From Torpedo marmorata (Eukaryota): a stretch of DNA of 64,000 bases. Positions within the stretch are counted from its first letter, which is position 1, and each line of letters begins with the position of its first letter. Below are positions 23,425-55,339 of the stretch, piece after piece. The notes beneath the pieces are model-generated. The model ran no database searches. It saw only the letters and a program-made list of their open reading frames with translations, and was not told the DNA's origin. Position numbers and translations under genes: made by a program. The DNA lies in the NCBI GenBank assembly GCA_977017645.1, contig OZ360239.1, forward strand, positions 43,586,001 to 43,650,000, in the 5' to 3' direction.

Positions 23425-23794
23425 CCACAGCAGATGCAATATTGCTGGCTCTCCACTCAGCTCTGGATCACCTCGAAAACAGCAATTCATACATAACGCT
23501 GCTCTTCATCAACTACAGGTTGGCCTTCAATACCATTATTCCCTCAGTGCTGGTCAAGAAGCTACAAACTCTAGGCCTCTGTACCCCTCTCTGCAACTGG
23601 ATCCTTGACTTTCTCATCGGAAGACCACAGTCAGTACGAATTGGAAACAACATCTCCTCCTCACTGATTATCAACACAGGTGCTCCCCAAGGATGCGTGC
23701 TTAGCCCACTGCTCTACTCATTATACACCCATGACTGTGTGGCCAGGCACAATTCCAATGCCATCTACAAGTTTGCCGATGACACCACAGTTAT
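23425..23794 (+). mobile_element. Rex1/Babar LINE, left part (host of the Gypsy insertion)
   Basis: [45 protein letters not shown], cut by the LTR. Confidence 0.9.
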
Positions 23795-24047
23795 TGATAG
23801 GCCTATCAATAACAACTCGAAGACTGTGAGAGCGAGTGAATCATAGGCTTTTATTGGCTAAGAATGGAGCTGAGCTTCCTCCTCGATCAGGTCCGGACTG
23901 AAGGGGGATGGCCGAGATACAGTGGCCTTTATTCAGGTGAGGAAAGGGGAGGGATTACCTGGACACCCAAGGGAGGGGAGGGAGTAGCATCAGTCCGGCC
24001 CGCAGTACCTATACGTACCACCAATACAAGCACAGTGGTTTACCACA
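23795..24047 (-). repeat. 3' LTR (253 bp)
   Basis: Minus strand TGTGGTAAACCAC...TGATAGGCCTATCA; identical by eye to 28241-28493. Confidence 0.97.
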
Positions 24048-24063
24048 TTCACCCCTCCTTTTT
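24048..24063 (-). other. Polypurine tract
   Basis: AAAAAGGAGGGGTGAA immediately before the 3' LTR on the element strand. Confidence 0.9.
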
Positions 24064-24142: not shown

Positions 24143-27100
24143 TCACAGATCGAGGCGATCCGGCGGCCGAATTTTTCGCTGTGACCTGCGTAATGGCGGG
24201 TCGGGCTGTGGTGCTGGGGAAGATATGAGTGACGGGGGAGGTGGTAGGGTCGTCTGTGCCGTCGCCTCCTGCCTGGCCTCTCGGAACGACTGCGATGCCG
24301 TTGAGGGGGCGGGGTCTAGCACATCGGGTGGGGCGTTAGGAAGAGGTTGCTGCGTGTTCTGTGGTACGTGGACTTGCCCGTCGGAATGCCCAACTGGCGC
24401 CCCATCAGGCGCCAGGTCTCTGATGGAGACGGTGTCTTCTCGTCCATCCGGGAAGACCACGTACGCATACTGGGGGTTGGCGTGCGCCAACTGCACCCTC
24501 TGAACCGTCGGTTCATATTTGCTGCTCCGAAGGTGGTTCCGGAGCAGCACTGGTCCCGGGGACATCAGCCAGGCAGGAAGGGAGGTCCCGGTGGTCGACT
24601 TCCTAGGGAAAGAAAGAAATCGCTCATGAGGAGTTGCGTTGGTGGAAGTGCACAAAAGGGACCGGATAGAGTGGAGGGCTTCGGGGAGAACATCCTGCCA
24701 GCGGGAGACCGGCCAGCCCTTTGACTTAAGGGCTAGGAGCGCGGCCTTCCACACCGTGGCGTTCTCCCTTTCCACCTGACCGTTTCCTCGGGGGTTGTAT
24801 GCTGTTGTCCTGCTAGTGGCGATGCCTCGGTCCTGCAGGTACCGGCGCAGCTCCTCACTCATAAAAGCTGCTCCCCGGTCGCTATGTATGTAGTTTGGAA
24901 ACCCAAACAGCGTGAATACCTGGTGGAGAGCTTTTATGGTTGAGGTAACTGAGGTGTCGGGGCAGGGGATGGCAAAAGGGAACCGCGAGTACTCGTCAAC
25001 AATGTTTAGGAAGTACACGTTGCGGTTTGTGGAGGGGAGGGGCCCCTTGAAGTCAATACTAAGACGTTCAAAGGGGCGCGTGGCTTTGATCAGCTGTGCC
25101 CTGTCCGGGCGGTAGAACTGAGGTTTGCACTCTGCGCAAACACGACAGTCTCTGGTCAAAGCCCTGACCTCTTCCAGGGAATATGGCAGGTTCTGTGCCT
25201 TCACAAAGTGAAAGAGCCTGGTAACTCCTGGGTGACAGAGGAGGTCATGCAGGGCGTGTAATCGGTCGACCTGCGCGCTGGCGCATGATCCCCGGGATAG
25301 AGCGTCTGAGGGCTCATTGAGCTTCCCGGGCCGATAGCAGATGTCGTAGTTATAGGTGGAGAGTTCTATTCTCCACCTCATAATTTTATCATTTTTGATC
25401 TTACCCCGCTGCTGGTTGTTGAACATAAATGCTACCGAGCGTTGGTCGGTCAGCAGGGTAAAACGCTTGCCTGCGAGATAGTGCCTCCAGTGCCTGATCG
25501 CTTCCACAATGGCCTGGGCTTCTTTCTCCACAGCAGAGTGTCGAATTTCGGGGCCTTGGAGGGTGCGCGAGAAGAACGCCACCGGCCTTCCCGCCTGGTT
25601 GAGGGTAGCAGCCAGTGCGAAGTCCGACGCGTCACTCTCCACCTGGAAAGGTGTCTCTTCATCCACCGCGTGCATTGTTGCTCGCGCAATGTCCCCCTTT
25701 ATAAGGTCAAAGGCCTTACGTGCCTCCGAGCCAAGGGGGAAAACGGTGGATTTCACCAGGGGTCGGGCCTTATCTGCATAATTCGGTACCCACTGTGCAT
25801 AATATGAAAAGAACCCGAGGCATCGCTTGAGTGCTTTGGGGGTGGAGGGTAGTGGAAGTTCCAGTAGGGGGCGCATGCGATCGGGGTCTGGCCCAATCAC
25901 CCCGTTCTCTACCACGTACCCCAAAATAGCGAGGCGCGTGGTACCGAACACACATTTATCTTTATTGTATGTTAAGTTAAGTGCTTTAGCCGCCTGCAGG
26001 AACTTCCGGAGGTTGGTGTCGTGATCCTGGCGATCCAGCCCACAGATGGTGATATCGTCCAGGTACGGGAAGGTGGCTTTAAGTTTATACACGTCCACAA
26101 TGTTATTCATCTCCCGCTGGAACACAGAAACACCGTTAGTAACCCCGAACGGGACCCGCAGGAAGTGGAACAGTTTCCCGTCAGCCTCAAACGCAGTGTA
26201 CTGGCGGTCCTCCCGGCGGATAGGGAGCTGATGGTACGCGGACTTCAGGTCAATCGTGGAAAAGACCTTGTACTGGGTGATCTGATTAACCATGTCCGCT
26301 ATCCTTGGTAGCGGGTATGCGTCCAACAAGGTGAACCGGTTAATCGTCTGACTGTAGTCCACCACCATCCTCCTCTTGGCCCCTTTTACCACGACCACCT
26401 GGGCCCTCCAGGGACTATTGCTCTTTTCAATAATCCCCTCTTGTAGTAACCTCTGAACCTCCGCCCTGATAAACGCCCTGTCCTCCGAACTGTATCGCCT
26501 GCTCTTGGTTGCAACAGGCTTACAGTCCGGGGTCAGGTTGGCGAATAGCGACGGAGGCGAGATCTTAAGAGTGGAGAGGCCACAGGTAGTCTGGGGCTCA
26601 TTATTAAGGAACTGGGGGTTGACTACAGTGATCGCAGGGTGGGGACCATCATACCGCATCGTGACACTGCGCAAGTGACTCTGAAAATCAAGCCCCAACA
26701 ATACAGGTGCACATAACCGATTCATTATTAACAAAGAAAAATGTTTGTACTTAGTCCCCTGTACCACAATATCAGCCACACAAGCCCCCCGGATGTCTGT
26801 TGTGTGTGCCCCAGACGCCATGGCCACCTTCTGGCTTACCGGTATAATCGTGAGGCCACAGCGCTGGACAGTGTCCGGGTGGATGAAACTCTCCGTACTG
26901 CCCGTATCGAAGAGACAGGTGGTCTTGTGTCCCTCCACCAGAATGTCCATCATGGATCTTGCTAACTGGTGAGGGATGCTCTGGTCAAGGGTGACTGACG
27001 CAAGAGTTGCGATGTATTCATCGTCTTCTTCTTCCACCGCCGACAAGTATGCATCGTCTTCTTCTTCTTCTTCTTCTTCCACCTCCGACAAAGATGGCCG

Positions 27101-28216
27101 CCCCCGCGGCTCGCACGTGTCGCTGCTGTAAAATGGCGGCGGTAGGATCGCTGGAAGTACAGATGCTGGAGGTGCAGGAAGTGCCAGCATCAAAGATGGC
27201 CGCCTCCGCGGCTCACACGAGGCCGGTTCCGGAAGTGCCAGCATCAAAGATGGCCGCCACCGCGGTCTACACGAGGCCGGTTCCGGAAGTGCCAGCGTCA
27301 AAGATGGCCGCCCCCGCGGCTCGCACGAGGTCGGCGCTGGAAGCTGCTGCAGATTCAGGTAGGATGGCTGCCCCCGCAGCTCGCACGCGGCGCTACTCGG
27401 GCCCGGGCGCGACTTGGAGCGGCAGGCCTTCATGTAATGGCCTTTCCTGCCGCATCCGGAACAAGTCGCGTCGCGGGCCGGGCAGCGCTTCCGCGGGTGT
27501 TTTTCAAGCCCGCAGAAGTAACACTTCTCGGGCTCGCGGCTGGCGGCAGCGGCGGTGAGGATCGCGGTCGCGATGGGGTCGGCACAGATGGCGGCGGTCG
27601 CGATCGGGTCGGCACGGATGGCGGCGGCGGCGGTCAGTTCGTTCACCGGGCTAGGGGATGGGGCCGACCACGCTGCGGGCTGGGCCTGCATGGCACCAGC
27701 GTTCTGCTGCGCGGTCTCCAGCGTGTTGACCATCGCTACCGCCCCCGCAAAGTCCAGGTCGGCGTGCTCTAATAGTCTCTGGCGCACGTCTACCGACCTG
27801 AGCCCCATGATGAACGCATCTCGCTCCACCACTCGCAAGTGTTCCTCCGCAGTCTGGGCTTTACAGTCGCACGCCCGTGCAAGTGACTGGATGGCCCTGA
27901 CATATTCCACAGTCGATTCCCCGGTTCGCTGCCTCCGTGAGTAGAGCCGGTATCGCGCGTAGACCGCGTTGACGGGCGCTAGGTAGATTCCTTTCAGGGC
28001 CCCGATGGCTCCCGTGTAGGTTCGGTGTTCTCTTACCGTCGTGTACACCCGATGGCTCACCCTGGAGGTAAGGACTCTCAGTTGTTCCTCTTCACTTTCG
28101 GCTTTCACTGTGAACATGAACGATTCGAGGCAGGCCAGCCAGTGTTCAAAGATGTTACCAGCCTCGGGGGCTAGGTGGTCGAGGTCTAGGATAGCTGGTC
28201 GTAGTGCTCCTTCCAT
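24143..28216 (-). CDS. gag-pol: Gag-Pol polyprotein, 1357 aa from the ATG at 28216
   Basis: Twin Zn knuckles CYFCGLEKHPRKRC and CSGCGRKGHYMKAC; protease LFDTGS; RT IDLKSAYHQ..PFG..YLDD; RNase H ESDAS..EKEAQA..LTDQ..DALSR; integrase H-H-CxxC, IDF, SDRG, GNGQVER. The homologous ATG is at 54638 in the second copy. Confidence 0.96.
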   Translation of the reverse strand: MEGALRPAILDLDHLAPEAGNIFEHWLACLESFMFTVKAESEEEQLRVLTSRVSHRVYTTVREHRTYTGAIGALKGIYLAPVNAVYARYRLYSRRQRTGESTVEYVRAIQSLARACDCKAQTAEEHLRVVERDAFIMGLRSVDVRQRLLEHADLDFAGAVAMVNTLETAQQNAGAMQAQPAAWSAPSPSPVNELTAAAAIRADPIATAAICADPIATAILTAAAASREPEKCYFCGLEKHPRKRCPARDATCSGCGRKGHYMKACRSKSRPGPSSAACELRGQPSYLNLQQLPAPTSCEPRGRPSLTLALPEPASCRPRWRPSLMLALPEPASCEPRRRPSLMLALPAPPASVLPAILPPPFYSSDTCEPRGRPSLSEVEEEEEEEDDAYLSAVEEEDDEYIATLASVTLDQSIPHQLARSMMDILVEGHKTTCLFDTGSTESFIHPDTVQRCGLTIIPVSQKVAMASGAHTTDIRGACVADIVVQGTKYKHFSLLIMNRLCAPVLLGLDFQSHLRSVTMRYDGPHPAITVVNPQFLNNEPQTTCGLSTLKISPPSLFANLTPDCKPVATKSRRYSSEDRAFIRAEVQRLLQEGIIEKSNSPWRAQVVVVKGAKRRMVVDYSQTINRFTLLDAYPLPRIADMVNQITQYKVFSTIDLKSAYHQLPIRREDRQYTAFEADGKLFHFLRVPFGVTNGVSVFQREMNNIVDVYKLKATFPYLDDITICGLDRQDHDTNLRKFLQAAKALNLTYNKDKCVFGTTRLAILGYVVENGVIGPDPDRMRPLLELPLPSTPKALKRCLGFFSYYAQWVPNYADKARPLVKSTVFPLGSEARKAFDLIKGDIARATMHAVDEETPFQVESDASDFALAATLNQAGRPVAFFSRTLQGPEIRHSAVEKEAQAIVEAIRHWRHYLAGKRFTLLTDQRSVAFMFNNQQRGKIKNDKIMRWRIELSTYNYDICYRPGKLNEPSDALSRGSCASAQVDRLHALHDLLCHPGVTRLFHFVKAQNLPYSLEEVRALTRDCRVCAECKPQFYRPDRAQLIKATRPFERLSIDFKGPLPSTNRNVYFLNIVDEYSRFPFAIPCPDTSVTSTIKALHQVFTLFGFPNYIHSDRGAAFMSEELRRYLQDRGIATSRTTAYNPRGNGQVERENATVWKAALLALKSKGWPVSRWQDVLPEALHSIRSLLCTSTNATPHERFLSFPRKSTTGTSLPAWLMSPGPVLLRNHLRSSKYEPTVQRVQLAHANPQYAYVVFPDGREDTVSIRDLAPDGAPVGHSDGQVHVPQNTQQPLPNAPPDVLDPAPSTASQSFREARQEATAQTTLPPPPSLISSPAPQPDPPLRRSQRKIRPPDRLDL
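27085..27390 (-). repeat. 54-bp coding tandem repeat in gag (18 aa, CEPRGRPSLMLALPEPAS)
   Basis: About three near-perfect units from 27177 plus degenerate partial units; followed in the protein by a (GAA)n poly-Glu tract at about 27020-27080. Confidence 0.9.
27555..27632 (-). repeat. 30-bp coding repeat (AIRADPIATA/AICADPIATA)
   Basis: Visible in both the DNA and the protein. Confidence 0.85.
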
Positions 28217-28222
28217 CAGAAG

Positions 28223-28239
28223 TTCTTTAGCCAATAAAA
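28223..28239 (-). other. Non-tRNA primer-binding-site position, complementary to the element's own LTR
   Basis: TTTTATTGGCTAA-A-GAA, 1 nt after the 5' LTR, is the reverse complement of LTR TTC-TTAGCCAATAAAA (28295-28310). Confidence 0.85.
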
Positions 28240-28240
28240 T

Positions 28241-28493
28241 TGATAGGCCTATCAATAACAACTCGAAGACTGTGAGAGCGAGTGAATCATAGGCTTTTAT
28301 TGGCTAAGAATGGAGCTGAGCTTCCTCCTCGATCAGGTCCGGACTGAAGGGGGATGGCCGAGATACAGTGGCCTTTATTCAGGTGAGGAAAGGGGAGGGA
28401 TTACCTGGACACCCAAGGGAGGGGAGGGAGTAGCATCAGTCCGGCCCGCAGTACCTATACGTACCACCAATACAAGCACAGTGGTTTACCACA
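28241..28493 (-). repeat. 5' LTR (253 bp)
   Basis: Identical by eye to the 3' LTR; ends 24 nt before the gag ATG. Confidence 0.97.
28296..28380 (-). promoter_or_regulatory. Putative LTR core promoter and polyA signal
   Basis: TATA-like GAATAAAG (28373-28380), Inr-like TCAGT (28343-28347) and AATAAA (28296-28301). CCTGAATAAAGGCCA, CAGTCCGG and the second AATAAA are kept in all three LTR types; functional roles are inferred. Confidence 0.55.
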
Positions 28494-29235
28494 GTCACCT
28501 TGCGCTCAATGTCAGCAAAAGCAAGGAGATGATTGTGGACTTCAGGAGGAAGTCAGGGGAACACGACCCAGTCTTCATCGAGGGCTCAGTAGTAGAGAGG
28601 GTCAAGAACTTCAAATTCATGGGTGTCAACATCTCCGAGGATCGGTCCTGGAGCCTCCACGTTGATGCAATCACAAAGAAGGCTCACCAGTGGATATACT
28701 TTGTGAAGTGTCTGAGGAGATTCGGTTTGTCACCGAAGACTCTCGTAAACTTTTACAGGTGTACCGTAGAGAGCATTCTGGCTGGTTGCATCACTGCCTG
28801 GTTTGGAGGCACCAACTCTCAGGACAAGAATAAACTCCAGAGGGTTGTTAACTCGGCCTGTGACATCACAGGCACCAGACTTCACTCCATCAAGGACATG
28901 TACATGAAGCACATTAAAAAGGCAGCCTCTGTCCTCAAAGACCCCCACCACCCAGGCCATGCCCTCTTCACTCTGCTACCATCGGGAAAAAGGTACAGGA
29001 GCCTAAAGATGAGCACTCAACGGCACAAGGACAGCTTCTTCCCCGCTGCCATCAGATTCCTGAATAATCAATGAACCAAAGACACTGCCTTACTTTTCGT
29101 GCACTATTATTTATATATATTTTTATAGTAATGTCATAAGATGGTTATAATATGAATGTTTGCACTATGATGCTGCTGCAAAACACTGAATTTCATGACT
29201 TGTTCATGACAATAAATTCTGATAAATTCTGAAAT
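28494..29235 (+). mobile_element. Rex1/Babar LINE, right part
   Basis: HLALNVSKSKEMIVDFRR..KFMGVNI..DPHHPGHALFTLLPSGKRYRS..SFFPAAIRFLN*, then 3' UTR and AATAAATTCTGA tail. Confidence 0.9.
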
Positions 29236-36677: not shown

Positions 36678-36868
36678 TGTGGTAAACCACTATGTATGGG
36701 TTGTGGGCTGGGTGAGATGTCTGGACATGCCCCTGCTGACTGTCCCGGTGGCTCCTCCCACAAACTCCCTGAATAAAGGCCATTGTGCCACCGCTCCTCC
36801 CCCAGTCCGGAACAGATCACCAGCACGAATGTAGCTCCATTCTTTTGCCAATAAAGGCCTTTCAGTTC

Positions 36869-39800
36869 CTTTTTTTAAAATATTTTATTTAAAATTTTAA
36901 ATCACAAAATACATAAGGTAATATAAAATTATCAAAATACATGTGATAAATTTTCACCCCCCCCTCCCTCCCTCCCCTCCCTAACCCTCCCACCCCTTCT
37001 AATCTACTAAAATAAAAAAGAAAGAAAGAAAGAAAGAAAAAGATAGAATAAGGAGAATGTCAATCTAAAAAATACATCTATAACTAATTTTATTATGGAG
37101 GATAGGTTCGCCAGTCAGATCCAATGTCCAGAGATCTTCAAATCTTTAAACCAACAACCTTCATATATGGGCTCCATATTTTCAAAAAGAAATAATATTT
37201 ATTACGTAGATTATAAGTAATTTTTTCAAGAGGTATACATGAACGAAGTTCTGCATGCCATCTTTCTAACCCTAAATCTACGTCAGATTTCCAAGTAATA
37301 GCAATACATTTCTTAGAAACAGCTAAAGCAATTCGCAACAATTCTATTTGATACATATTTAATTTCATCTTAATACTAACTCTTTTAATATCTCCAAACA
37401 AAAATATCATAGGGTCCATTGGGAATGTAATTTTTAATACTTTATCTAAAAACGTTTTAAATTTCAACCAAAAATCATAAACCTTTGGACAAAACCATGT
37501 AGAATGTACAAAAGAACCTTCCTCTCTATTACATCTAAAACATAAGCCTGGTAATGTCGCGTTAAATTTCTTTAATTTTTTAGGCGTTAAATATAATTGA
37601 TGAAAAAAATTATATTGAACTAATCTATATCTAACATTAATAATCTTCGTCATACTTAGTTTACATAATTCTTTCCAATGATCTTCATCTATTGTTACAT
37701 TCAAATCTGATTCCCATTTTAATCTTGATTTATGAATCTCTGAAACAATCTATACATTTGAGAAATAAATTTATTTACACCTCCGTTAGTAACTAATAAT
37801 TCTAATTCACTCTGTCTTGGTAAAGTCAAACTATAGCCTAATTTCCCAACTAAAAATGCTCTAATTTGATAATAAGCAAAAAGTGTATTATTCAATACAT
37901 TAAACTTATCTTTCATTCTTTGAAAAGTAATAAATTTACCAGCTTCAAAACAATCATTTATTTTCTTAATTCCCTTTTGAAACCAAATTTTAAATAATTG
38001 ATTATCAACAGTAAATGGAATAAGTTTATTTTGATATAAAGGCATTTTTGGAGAAATCAACCCTTTCCCTCCTATCTCCCTATCCACTCTATTCCATATT
38101 TCTAACAAATGTTTAAAAATAGGAGAGTTCTTCCTTCTTGTTAATAATAATTTAGAATTCCATTTATAAATAACTTCTTCTTTCAAATCTTCTCCTATAT
38201 TATTTAGTTCTATTCTAATCCAAGCAGAAGACTTAGTTAAATCAAACAATTCATTAACAAATTTTAATTGAGCTGCTTTATAATAATTTTGAAAATTAGG
38301 AAGTTGTAAACCACCCATTTCATAATTCCAAGTTAATTTCTCCATACCTACTCTAGCCAACTTTCCTTTCCTCAAAAACTTCCTAATAATTAAATTTAAA
38401 TCTTTTTAAAAATTTTGAGGAATTTCATATGGAATTCATTGAAAAAGATATTGAATTCTTGGAAAAACATTCATTTTAATACAATTTACCCTTCCCATCA
38501 AAGTTATAGGTAAATCCTTCCAGCTCTCTAAATCTTTTTTAATTTTCATAAATAATGGTAAATAATTTAATTTATATAAATTAGTTAATTTTGTATCAAT
38601 CTGTCTTTGTATTCACTCTGCTTCCATCGGGAAAAAGGTACAGGAGCCTAAAGATGAGCACTCAACGGCACAAGGACAGCTTCTTCCCTGCTGCCATCAG
38701 ATTCCTGAATAATCAATGAACCAAAGTCACTGCCTTACTTTTTGTGCACTATTGTTTATAATTTTTTATAGTAATGTCGTTAGATGGTTAATATGAATGT
38801 TAATTGCACTATGATGCTGCCGCAAAACACCGAATTTCATGACTTGTTCGACAATAAATTATGATTCTGATTCTGATCTTTATTCCCAAATATTTAATTC
38901 CTTCCTTTGACCATTTAAATTGTGTAATTTCTTTACATTTACTATAATCCCCTTGTGTTAATGCCATAATTTCACTTTTATCAGAATTAATCTTATAACC
39001 AGATATTTCCCCATATTCTCTCAATAAAGAAGTAATAGGTTTTGTCATATAAATCAATACATCATCTGCAAATAAACTAATTCTATGCTCTTCTCTTCCA
39101 ACTTTAATACCTGCAATCTTAATATCTTGTCTAATTAATTCTGCCAAAGGTTCTATTGCTAAAATAAACAATGCTGGTGACAAAGGACATCCTTGTCTAG
39201 TTGACCTAGTCAAAGGAAATTTTGAAGAAATTTGTCCATTTGTGACCACTTTAGCAGATGGTTCTTTATATATCGTTTTAATCCAATTAATAAATGTAGT
39301 TCCAAAATCAAATTTCCCCAATACCTTAAATAAATAATTCCACTCTAACCTATCAAAAGCCTTTTCAGCATCTAACGTTAACTCTAATGCTAAATCATCT
39401 TTATTTTTTTCCACATTAATTAAACTAATTAATCTAGCTATGTTATCCTTTGAATATCTAATCTTAATAAAACCAGCTTGATCTACATGGATTAAATCTG
39501 GTAAATAATTAGCAACTCTATTTGCTAAAATTTTTGCCATTATCTTATAATCCACATTAACAATGAAATTGGTCTATATATTCTGTTTTCAACACATCTC
39601 TATCTTTTTTAGGTATAACTGTAATTATTGCATTCGAAAATGTTTCCGGTAACGAATGAGTTTCCGTTATTTGTTTCAACACATCCATATATGGAGGCAT
39701 CAATAAATCTTTAAACTCCTTATAAAATTCTGATGGGAAACCATCTTCCCCTGGAAATTTACCACTCGTTAAAGAAGTAAGAACCTCATTAACTTCCCTC

Positions 39801-40854
39801 ATTGAAAAAGACAAATCCAAAAATTCTTTACTTTGAGTATTTAATCTAGGTAGCTTAATTTTAGATAAAAATCTATTAATTTTAGAGTCATCTTCATCAA
39901 TCTGAGATTTATATAAATTCGAATAATAATCCTTAAAAGAATAATTTATTTCTCGAGGTTTATATGTTGTTTTCTTAGAATTCTTTTTTATAGCATTTAT
40001 AGTTCTAGAAGTTTGATCTTTCTTTAATTGGCACGCCAACACTTTATGTGCTCTTTCTCCCAATTCATAATATCTTTGTTTAGTTCTTTCAATTAATTTT
40101 TCCATTTTATATGTTTGTAACAAATTATAATGCAATTTTTTCCCAACTAAATTTTTCCTCTTTTCTTCTGATCTCTTTTTTTGTAAATCCTTCTCCCTCT
40201 CCAAATTATCCACCTCCCGAAGATAATCCTTCTTAATTTTTGCTGAATAACTTATTATTTGACCTCTTAAATAAGCCTTTAAAGCTTCCCAAATAATAAA
40301 TTTATTATCAGTCGAATTAGAATTTATTTGTAAAAATTCCTGAATTTCTCTTCTTATATAATCACAAAAATCCATTCTTTTTAATAAAGAAGAATTAAAT
40401 CTCCACCTATATATAGTTTTTTCTTTTTCTGGAATTATGCAAGACATTAATAAAGGCGAATGATCAGAAATTATTCTTGCTTTATAAGATGCTTGTGTTA
40501 CCCTATCTTGGACTTGTGAAGACAATAAAAACATATCTATCCTAGAATATGAATCATGTCTAAAAGAGTAAAAAGAATAATCTTTTTCTCTTGGATTCAA
40601 CTTTCTCCAAATATCTATGAAATTTAAGTCTTTCATCAAACTAAGAACTCTTTTAGCAATTTTAGATTTAACAACTGATCTTGATGTTTTATCCATTATC
40701 GGATCTAAACAACAATTAAAATCCCCACCAATTAAAATATTATCATTAGCTTCTGACAAATGCATAAAATAATCTTGAATAAATTGTTCATCATCCGCAT
40801 TTGGTACATATATATTCATAAGTGTCCACAATTCTGAATATATCTGACAATGAA
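36869..40854 (-). mobile_element. L1 LINE, 5'-truncated within the endonuclease, ORF2 frameshifted
   Basis: EN NIYVPN..GGDFN..SRIDMFL..SDHSPL; RT LDAEKAFD..TRQGCPLSP..LFADD..YLGI; C-terminal CFRC..H...C; polyA; 12-bp TSD GCCTTTCAGTTC at 36857-36868 and 40855-40866. Confidence 0.95.
38603..38878 (+). mobile_element. Rex1 3' fragment inserted in the L1 RT
   Basis: Near-identical to 28967-29220; interrupts L1 YLGIK|IDTKLTNLY, with ATCT at both junctions. Confidence 0.88.
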
Positions 40855-40934
40855 GCCTTTCAGTTCTTGTGTAACTTCTAGTCTTTTGAAGTTATAGTCA
40901 GTACTCTGACTATAAATCTGAAATCTGAAATCTG

Positions 40935-52841: not shown

Positions 52842-54637
52842 ATATAGACAGTTCAGTGGCAAAAGTTAATATTGTAGGGCTGCATGTAATGTCCTGTCAA
52901 ATATTTGAGTTGGCTCAGTTGGAAGGTAATGTTTTTTCCTCTCATTATGGCAACGGAATCAAAAGCCTAACCTCTTGGATTACTGTATATTGAAACCCCG
53001 CACTCAATACACTACAGATACATCACTGACAAACTGCTCCAAAACTAGCCTGATAAATCCTGTTACATGTTATTGACAAGGTGATTCTAGCAAGAAAGCT
53101 GTTTAGAATAAAGATATACTGAACAAACTTATGAAGCATAAAAATATAAGATGTCTTCTGAAGTAGCCCTAAAAAAATTATCACGCTGATGTTATTTCCT
53201 GAGCAAAAACAAAAACATAACTCAGCATTTGAACACACATTGCATGCTTTCAATTTAATATGTGTGCCCCATCCTGTTACCTTGACTTTAGGTCTTCTTG
53301 AAAATTTGCCATAGCTTACATACTGTACCACATTATATACCTGTTCCTGGGCAGATATTTGAATCTTGCTTTCTTATAATGCTTCTGGTAGCTAATTTCA
53401 TACAAAGTTATCAGAATTATCAAAACAACATTTGGAAAATGCATAATGTCATTCAGCACAATTTTCTTCCAATTATTTCTCTTTAATGTTTAATTTTCTT
53501 GATCAATTTTCATTTATAAAGAAAAGTTATTTGTAAAGCCTCTTAAAAATATGCTGACAACTTTATTGAATTAGAGCTCCATTGTGTTAATGCATTACTG
53601 ATGTACTAGTTTGATGATCTAAAATGTCACCAACCCTTCATGGCACATGCTTCTTAAAGTCTTGTGGAGCCATATTCAAAAACAAACACCATAAGCACAT
53701 AATCAGTGGTCAATATCAAAGAGACCAATTTCAGTACGAGCAGGCCTGTAGCTCAAAGAATGGATGCAGCATTGAGGGAGCAGGTTTTGGCAGTGAATTT
53801 GCAAGTTATTGCTGGGTCTAAATTCTGAGACACCTTTCCCAATATCACTGTGACTGTATCCCCTCGTTATCAATAGCATCTGTACAAGAACATTACACAT
53901 GCCAGGCCAGTCAGATATTGGCTGTAATCATTGGTCTTGTCAACAAAGTACCATATAAACAAATTAATCTTATCCAATTTTCTAACGGAAGCACTCAAGT
54001 CCAGAGATATCGCACTCAATGCACCACTATTCTGTGATATTTTATGATATCAATTCATCAGTTCACTATTACTGTCCTTCAAACAATCCCAAAGTATCTT
54101 GTAATGTTTATTGCAGATATAATTTATATAATGTTCTCACTCTTAATACTGCCAAAAGCATGAAACCCATATTCCATAGCACGGGGTGCCAGCTATTCCA
54201 CCATGCCCATCACATCAACTGAAGAGGTTGGACAGCTCTTACTGACAAATTCCTCTCTCGTGCAAGTCAAGATGGTGCACAACCACAGACTATTGGAGTT
54301 AACCCGAAGGAGGAGATGATGAAGAAAGATATTATCGGAATGGCATTTCAGGGACCACTTGTGGTAAACCACTGTTTAGGTATATTGTGTAGTATGAGTA
54401 TGTCCTACAGTCTGTCCCAGTGTCTCCTCCCCCTCCCCTGGGTGTCCCGATAATCCCTCCCCCTTCCTCACCTGAATAAAGGCCATTGTGCCACCGTCCC
54501 ACCCACAGTCCGGGATCAGATCTGCAGGTCGACTGTAGCTGTGTTTAATGTTAATAAAAGCCTATGGTTCGTTCCCACTCATAGTCTTTTGAGTGCTTAT
54601 TGATAGGCCTATCAATTTTATTAACATTTAAAATCTG

Positions 54638-55030
54638 ATGGAGAGCGCTCTAAGACTGGACCGACTGGACATCGATCACCTAGCTCCTGATGCCGGTAAC
54701 TCTTTTGAACACTGGCTACGCTGTCTCGAGTCCTTTATGATGACGATCAAAGCGGAAAGCGAGGAGCAAAAACTGAGGGTCCTCGTGTCCAGGGTAAGCC
54801 CTCGGTTATTCTCAACAGTTCGGGACTGTAAAACCTATACGGAGGCGATGGATGCGCTGAAGAGGATCTACGTGACGCCTGTTAACGCGGTCTACGCGAG
54901 GTACCGACTTTCTACGCGAAAACAGCGGGCCGGGGAGTCGATCGTGGAGTATGTCAGGGACATACAGTCGCTGGTACGAGCGTGCGACTGTAAAGCGCTG
55001 ACTGCAGAGGAACACGTCGAATTGCTGGAA
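54638..55030 (+). pseudogene. gag: gag N-terminal fragment (131 codons)
   Basis: MESALRLDRLDIDHLAPDAGNSFEHWL.. aligns without gaps to MEGALRPAILDLDHLAPEAGNIFEHWL.. Confidence 0.9.
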
Positions 55031-55339
55031 GGGGGATTGGGGAGGGGTTGCAGTAAGTGGTCTTGCCCGTCGAAGGTTTCTTCCGGTGCTCCCGCGGGCG
55101 CCAGGTCACGAATTGACACCGTGTCCTCTCGCCCATCAGGGAAGACCACGTAGGCATACTGCGGGTTAGCGTGCGCTAACTGCACCCTCTGGACCGTCGG
55201 CTCATATTTGCTGCTCCGAAGGTGGTTGCGGAGCAGCACAGGTCCCGGGGATGTCAGCCAGGCAGGTAGGGTGGTTCCGGTGTTCGACTTCCTGGGGAAG
55301 GAGAAAAGTCGTTCGTGAGGGGTTGCGTTCGTGGACGTG
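55031..55339 (-). pseudogene. pol: Inverted pol (integrase C-terminal) fragment
   Basis: LLRNHLRSSKYEPTVQRVQLAHANPQYAYVVFPDGREDTVSIRDLAP is identical in protein to the intact element. Confidence 0.92.

Follow-up and report, generated by a model that had tools for sequence, protein, structure and literature searches.

How does an LTR retrotransposon begin reverse transcription when its PBS opens with TTT? Every mature tRNA end requires TGG in the PBS, and the window analysed here, a stretch of 64,000 nt of the Torpedo marmorata genome, holds two gypsy elements in which this site is the complement of a tract of the element's own LTR (Table 1). From sequence comparison we consider that the PBS of this Ty3/gypsy element pairs with its own LTR and that the primer is probably the first 52 nt or so of the element's own RNA, released by a cut after the poly(A) hexamer, and not the first 11 nt as in Tf1; that the element primes itself in one form or another we regard as highly probable.

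Table 1. Position of LTRs, candidate priming signals and coding regions in the window
Feature	Position	Strand	Remark
5' LTR of element 1, TG...CA	28241..28493	-	253 bp; identical to 3' LTR
3' LTR of element 1	23795..24047	-	253 bp
TATA-like AATAAAGG, putative promoter	28372..28379	-	34 nt upstream of predicted start
Initiator-like TCAGTCC	28341..28347	-	A at 28345 = putative transcription start and primer RNA 5' end
Self-primer arm, 13 nt, ends AATAAAA	28295..28307	-	poly(A) hexamer within; putative primer 3' end
Candidate cleavage site AAA/A/GCC (within 1 nt)	28291..28296	-	fold-back LTRs return here
U5-end palindrome	28239..28256	-	hairpin predicted, stacking on primer helix
Spacer A of element 1, between terminal CA and PBS	28240	-	
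PBS of element 1	28227..28239	-	exact arm complement; without TGG start
gag-pol, single frame, ATG at 28216	24143..28216	-	twin CCHC knuckles, PR, RT, RNase H, IN
Polypurine tract (PPT), then AA before 3' LTR	24048..24063	-	
5' LTR of element 2 (subfamily 2)	54360..54614	+	arm at 54547-54559
PBS of element 2	54616..54628	+	complement of own arm; spacer 54615; ATG 54638
Remainder of element 2, rearranged	54638..55339	+	gag start, then inverted integrase-end piece
Truncated LTR, third subfamily, own arm variant	36678..36869	+	without PBS downstream

A Ty3/gypsy element without a chromodomain

The domain order of element 1 (PR-RT-RNase H-IN in a Pfam scan) is that of Ty3/gypsy, its best solved relative is Ty3 Gag-Pol (E 2.6e-64), and the Pfam domain scan found neither a chromodomain nor env in its protein. 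The first-pass annotation had described a twin-knuckle Gag and no evident chromodomain, and this description holds: the two CCHC knuckles are adjacent and recur in 82 of the 90 homologues with a full N-terminus, chromodomain scans were negative (Chromo and SH3_Tf2-1 matched none of eight proteins at E 0.5, and the precomputed domains of the 120 homologues listed include no chromodomain), and the GPY/GPF motif occurs in none of 121 C-termini. A twin-knuckle Gag is the signature of the Mag lineage, whose elements are primed by tRNA, unlike the present element, which has no tRNA-type PBS. The likeness to Mag is one of Gag and layout; with Mag and SURL, as portrayed in the accessible portions of two reports (PMC3601003, PMC11117352), the element shares LTRs of 200-300 bp, a clear AATAAA within them and one gag-pol frame that encodes about 1,350 aa.

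A search of the same genome for chromovirus outgroups turned up Gmr1-like elements and host chromodomain genes only, and chromoviruses may be rare or absent there; chromodomain matches numbered 15 among 95 genome candidates, and the two that were translated look like host genes. The Gmr1-like gypsy family is abundant (L131-L140, L158-L160) and carries its integrase before RT; most of the RT core is missing from the open frame of two fetched copies.

Element 2 has the same layout as element 1 in different letters. Its inverted piece is 83% identical to 24364-24650, with gag broken before it, and the rearrangement resembles reverse-transcription accidents found genome-wide. All six other subfamily-1 copies examined have perfect 5-bp target duplications and 0-1 LTR differences, and the family must therefore be very young. 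The flanks of element 1 itself, GTGAC (23790-23794) and ATAAC (28494-28498), form no matching duplication, unlike those of its six siblings, possibly because copies recombined or the site suffered a deletion; they resemble a LINE remnant, and the 3' LTR end together with its flank makes a perfect 24-bp palindrome. Elsewhere in the window, three 54-bp tandem repeats lie within gag (27171-27343), where a proline-rich peptide is repeated between the knuckles and the protease, and the minus strand at 37138-40891 carries a LINE whose endonuclease and RT domains are spread over several broken frames.

Pairing and joint change of the LTR arm and the PBS

The sequences quoted in the first-pass annotation for both elements are correct, as is its count of six differing pairs among the nine outside the AATAAAA core, five of which fall in the 13-bp helix, the sixth in the 3-bp extension. 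To place this helix in the family, four Gag queries were used (each with 150 scored copies from about 50,000 candidates, the first 30 loci per query being fetched), so that 120 copies were picked by Gag similarity alone with the helix disregarded; four were dropped for a missing LTR end or cut motif, leaving 116. Complementarity is kept in these other copies, each of positions 1-13 being Watson-Crick in 112-116 of the 116, and positions 14, 15, 16 and 17 pair in 54, 42, 60 and 2 copies. Thus, of the structure originally described as 13 bp, a 1-nt bulge and 3 further bp, the 13 bp stand, and the bulge with its three pairs is not conserved, positions 15-17 behaving independently. The paired length is 13 nt in subfamilies 1 and 2 and 14 nt in subfamilies 3 and 4, the helix starts 1 nt past the terminal CA in every family, and 13 different 13-mers are perfectly paired among the copies. 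When the LTR was block-shuffled 20,000 times, a 13-nt complement starting from PBS position 1 never arose, the best reaching 11 nt. The exact subfamily-1 junction occurs 907 times in the genome, and two copies of GCT-type subfamilies (L088 and L119) share the same T-to-C change at PBS position 7.

For 17 natural copies RNAalifold predicted a 12-bp helix, in which six of the 12 pairs show two-sided changes and none is broken, and stacked this primer helix on a 7-bp U5 hairpin; the consensus of these 17 copies contains no third conserved duplex, and in single-sequence folds GCCUAU pairs with AUAGGC instead. Around the arm, 108 of the 116 copies have a conserved GTCTT(T/C) 22-25 nt past the cut, which is how a poly(A) site is laid out. 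The initiator follows the conserved AATAAAGG by 32-34 nt, and in subfamilies 2-4 most of the scored copies have the TATA-like element 85 nt ahead of the cut motif.

A tree was built from 600 nt of gag in 86 copies, leaving out 27 identical subfamily-1 copies and three with an A-run indel. On this tree positions 8-13 require 22 changes in the LTR, 24 in the PBS and 25 when both are taken jointly, against 46 expected if the two were independent; for positions 15-17 the counts are 4, 13 and 16, against 17 expected. Variable sites of the arm change 3.7 times per site, compared with 2.0 and 2.5 in the flanking LTR. Double changes of arm and PBS are no rarer than single ones, in contrast to selection alone, which would make them rare. 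Plus-strand strong-stop synthesis copies the primer, the one step at which the PBS is templated by another molecule, and the changes of LTR and PBS on the same branches therefore suggest that the arm is the primer. Two copies carry mismatched alleles: the over-copied PBS of L299 (1500-1570) matches another allele and not its own 5' LTR arm, and the PBS of L149 matches its 3' LTR and not its own 5' LTR arm, which hints at mixed RNA pairs in one particle.

Related proteins number 1,376, with named matches in sharks, rays, cnidarians, nematodes, insects and tunicates, the closest being those of rays and sharks. An alignment of 54 homologues includes eight contigs with distant relatives (L063-L070), which lie in bacterial genome bins and are evidently animal-derived contaminants; two are circularly permuted, element-length assemblies. 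Their RT/RNase H identity to the window element is 50-65%, with only short fragments available for L069 and L070. The LTR-gag junction is present in six of the eight, representing five families (two of the six are one family), and the helix was found in all six, with 14, 13, 14, 14 and 17 bp and, where the 5' arm has decayed, 10 bp, always beginning 1 nt past CA. AAAGYC (GCC or GTC) directly follows the arm in five of the six; a U5-end hairpin was not evident in these relatives, nor was a common promoter spacing by eye. A metagenome scan with one RT gave two loci, neither with a usable LTR junction, and a scan of viral contigs gave none. Since L070 carries GGGTAAA in its arm within a 17-bp helix that lacks the hexamer, the poly(A) hexamer would be usual and not required, and the idea that priming needs it is not supported.

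Could the helix serve only to mask the poly(A) signal of the 5' LTR, with a host RNA as primer and the junction fossils described below arising from DNA-level switches between the inverted arms? The first-pass annotation had noted no shared TGG-initiated tRNA complement, and our comparison concurs: in 33 host tRNA genes of nine anticodons (30 loci, from 63 candidates scored in an Rfam search) the match to a tRNA 3' end is at most 1 nt, and all 116 PBS begin TTT. For an internal tRNA fragment, the kind of primer used by half-tRNA-primed elements (copia, Bianca type), the best match is 8 nt in this small set, outside which lie tRNA-Ile and iMet, and the GCT-type arm, we presume, resembles the tRNA-Ile anticodon loop, again of a tRNA outside the set compared. 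The arm does hold AATAAA or ATTAAA in the copies of the host genome and at five of the six distant loci, as masking would have it. Replication of host DNA, too, can switch templates at inverted arms; this may explain some junctions, and counts against the self-primer reading that we favour as well. However, a host primer gives no account of the invariable start of the helix 1 nt after CA or of double changes that match single ones in frequency, each of 13 or more PBS words would call for a separate host RNA, and L070 keeps its long helix with no hexamer to hide. We therefore find priming by a host RNA very improbable.

Junction fossils and the putative ends of the primer

Where PBS copying overruns its normal end, the PBS should continue into antisense LTR. 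The corresponding pattern (LTR end, PBS and further antisense LTR) has 112 matches genome-wide for subfamily 1 and 20 for subfamily 2, none being found with the reversed control of either, which makes a total of 132 junctions. Of the 100 subfamily-1 places listed, 99 were fetched, one being a chance match. The antisense copy stops in 28 of the 99 and rejoins elsewhere, mostly inside gag-pol via short homologies; 64 reach the LTR start, 59 then passing into host DNA and five into PPT, and six more run on with the LTR-start motif missed in them. Relative to the initiator A, 13 of the 28 stops fall in the 31 nt before it, nine at -1 to +2, and six in the 123 nt after it. This clustering has a Poisson p of 6e-5 against the upstream rate, or 4e-4 if two events sharing a target count once. 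Two pairs of stops (L211/L251 and L299/L304) share a target with 6-9 nt of microhomology, so that their break points are ranges, and the stop of L289 was set by hand. In subfamily 2 all three stops lie at -1 to +1 and 17 of the 20 junctions run on; over both subfamilies, 12 of 31 stops are within 2 nt of the predicted initiator. Microhomology was not supported as the cause of the cluster, interior homology being no richer there (three of four references computed), and a primer made by splicing was rejected, the over-copied tracts being colinear with the unspliced LTR.

The simplest reading of stops piling up at the initiator is that the RNA template of the primer ends there. The arm had been placed about 40 nt downstream of the predicted initiator; the stops favour that initiator as the RNA start, which would put +1 at 38-40 nt upstream of the arm; from the initiator A of CAGTCC to the cut the distance is 51 nt in subfamily 1 and 53 nt in the others. 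A Tf1-like primer of only 13-14 nt, produced if transcription starts at the arm or if a second cut trims the 52-nt leader, would leave the over-copies to minor longer transcripts or untrimmed primers. It would explain the abrupt end of the paired, co-changing tract after 13-14 nt (distant relatives have 13-17 nt), a limit of the normal PBS copy for which the long-primer model gives no reason, and why normal junctions far outnumber over-copies (907 against about 16 per 100 listed, in subfamily 1); an initiator-like CCATTC also stands just before the arm in subfamilies 1, 3 and 4. Against this, no TATA-like element is found 30 nt upstream of the arm, subfamily 2 is without CCATTC, and the stops accumulate at +1 of the upstream initiator; so short a primer seems to us unlikely, although a second, trimming cut may occur.

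The other end of the primer would be marked by single LTRs. Of the 99 fetched places, 17 are single LTRs in which the arm is followed by a copy of 6-27 nt of the first minus-strand bases, after which (A)GCC resumes, in a set chosen for an inverted U5 reaching GGC and with CTTT homology shared by most switch points; in none of the 17 does the fold-back copy extend past the A-run. A script recognized 5-bp target duplications in 11 and inspection by eye added three; of the others, two show a single mismatch and one is not evaluable. The matching duplications indicate that the fold-back LTRs are solitary insertions in host DNA. Fold-backs with 5-bp duplications of their own (L200, L205, L207, L216, L224, L235, L238, L241, L246, L262, L288 and others) include members of even the youngest subfamily, and they may have integrated directly as LTR-length DNA and not via LTR-LTR recombination. 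As far as their sequence goes, the fold-backs fit a strong-stop cDNA with its 3' end at the cut site, folded back on itself. Six of them share one junction with a single extra T; this T, the AA that separates PPT from LTR and the U5 hairpin with its use of PBS position 1 would fit a primer ending AAUAAA plus two extra bases beyond CA. The return of the fold-backs at GCC, the helix in 112-116 of 116 copies and the lack of TGG all agree with the original proposal of tRNA-free self-priming from an RNA 3' end at ...AAUAAA(A).

That proposal had left two sources for the primer, a cleaved 5' R or the 3' R end of the transcript, and the clustering of stops at the initiator favours the former and disfavours the latter. 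If the 3' end of genomic RNA, probably of a co-packaged second copy, were trimmed to ...AAUAAAA and used as primer, the junctions that continue through U3, some into PPT and with no visible seam (64/99 and 17/20), would need no further step, and the other-allele PBS of L299 would be natural. The same run-through junctions count against the 5'-end primer that we favour, which needs an extra jump to produce them. Priming from the 3' end nevertheless offers no reason for stops at +1 with only six in the next 123 nt, or for fold-backs returning at GCC; the hexamer-to-GT-rich spacing predicts an RNA 3' end about 20 nt past the arm; and run-through products would be enriched in any case, because integration needs two LTR ends. 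We judge a 3'-end primer to be decidedly improbable.

A candidate priming cycle and what it would mean

We postulate the following cycle for the cleaved 5' leader. Transcription would start at the initiator A (28345), and nt +39 to +51, ending AAUAAAA, would pair with the PBS adjoining the LTR end, a step for which the conserved complementarity is observed. The RNA would then be cut at AAA/A/GCC, RNase H being a possible cutter by analogy with Tf1, and leave a capped primer of about 52 nt with 13-14 nt of it paired. From the 3' end of this fragment RT would extend across the LTR end to the cut site, as the junction fossils suggest, and the strong-stop DNA would jump to the RNA 3' end via the approximately 20 nt that separate the hexamer from the predicted poly(A) site, that is, a short R left by polyadenylation about 20 nt past the hexamer. 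Plus-strand synthesis would finally copy the last 13-14 nt of the primer and so rewrite the PBS, a step suggested by the concerted change, and over-run at this point would leave antisense LTR copies that end at the RNA 5' end or jump into U3. In such a model the same helix would hide the poly(A) signal in the 5' LTR.

To our knowledge, Tf1 is the sole element in which self-primed reverse transcription has been demonstrated; the trait counts as a hallmark of Tf1/sushi and has been predicted for a few plant lineages. Repbase reportedly labels some animal Gypsy families "self-primed" and uses the clade name "Smaug", of which our literature search gave no confirmation. We found no description of self-priming in an animal non-chromovirus gypsy clade in the literature searched, Repbase Reports, GyDB and most subscription journals being outside its reach; the family peptides had no match in the published supplements searched, and the accessible parts of PMC6238403, PMC8556966, PMC12801592, PMC12471100 and PMC2864245 do not describe the priming of this clade.

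As far as the accessible text of the respective reports goes, the Tf1 primer of S. pombe is the RNA's first 11 bases, cut by RNase H (PMC7175516), Tj1 is proposed to self-prime in the same manner (PMC4600332), the Tf2 self-primer is located in R (PMC5341516), and Tf1/sushi is delimited as those chromoviruses whose self-primer is 5'-terminal and sits in a three-duplex "pretzel" (PMC10085805). Like Tf1/Tf2, Tj1, Tosmo1-3, Tcry1 and Tf1/sushi in these sources (PMC7175516, PMC4600332, PMC5341516, PMC10085805), the present element is a Ty3/gypsy element with a PBS complementary to its own 5' LTR, and like Tf1/sushi it would make its primer by cutting its own RNA and has a U5 hairpin predicted beside the PBS. 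It differs from Tf1, with its primer of the first 11 nt, in an arm that would lie at +39 to +53, at the end of a longer fragment and overlapping the poly(A) hexamer, and from Tf1/sushi in having no chromodomain; on these sequence grounds its self-primer probably does not lie at the very 5' end of the RNA as it does in that group. The parts of PMC6317226 available to us predict self-primers, with a PBS at least 10 bp complementary to the 5' LTR, for plant Tcn1 chromoviruses and for TAR/Houba/Osr-1 of Ty1/copia. These share with our element the complementarity of PBS and 5' LTR and differ from it in their plant hosts and copia or chromovirus proteins, primer length and RNA start being unmapped there (PMC6317226, same parts). 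Given that plant TAR elements have predicted self-primers, self-priming would exist outside Tf1/sushi too.

Self-priming itself is thus already known (Tf1/sushi, Tcn1, TAR), and what is added here is a tree test of templated PBS change and a genome-wide census that places both primer ends. More tentatively, and with slightly less than even confidence, we suggest that self-priming arose independently of Tf1/sushi in a Ty3/gypsy clade that lacks chromodomains, is large and spans the animals. Its long capped leader would be cut right after the hexamer, a single helix would provide the primer as well as shut off the 5' poly(A) site, the PBS would be rewritten every cycle, and cycles that fail would be inserted as single LTRs in which the start of the RNA, the site of the cut and the earliest cDNA bases are preserved. 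If this were true, a priming reaction could be mapped from genome sequence alone, and exact positions open to testing are supplied by the over-copies and fold-backs: the RNA start at 28345, the cut at 28294-28296 and the first cDNA bases. Self-priming would here belong to a very successful clade without chromodomains, with at least 907 young copies of one subfamily in one genome, and with a primer geometry different from that of Tf1. Such elements would be missed by annotation pipelines that require a tRNA PBS, and would escape control by tRNA supply and tRNA fragments.
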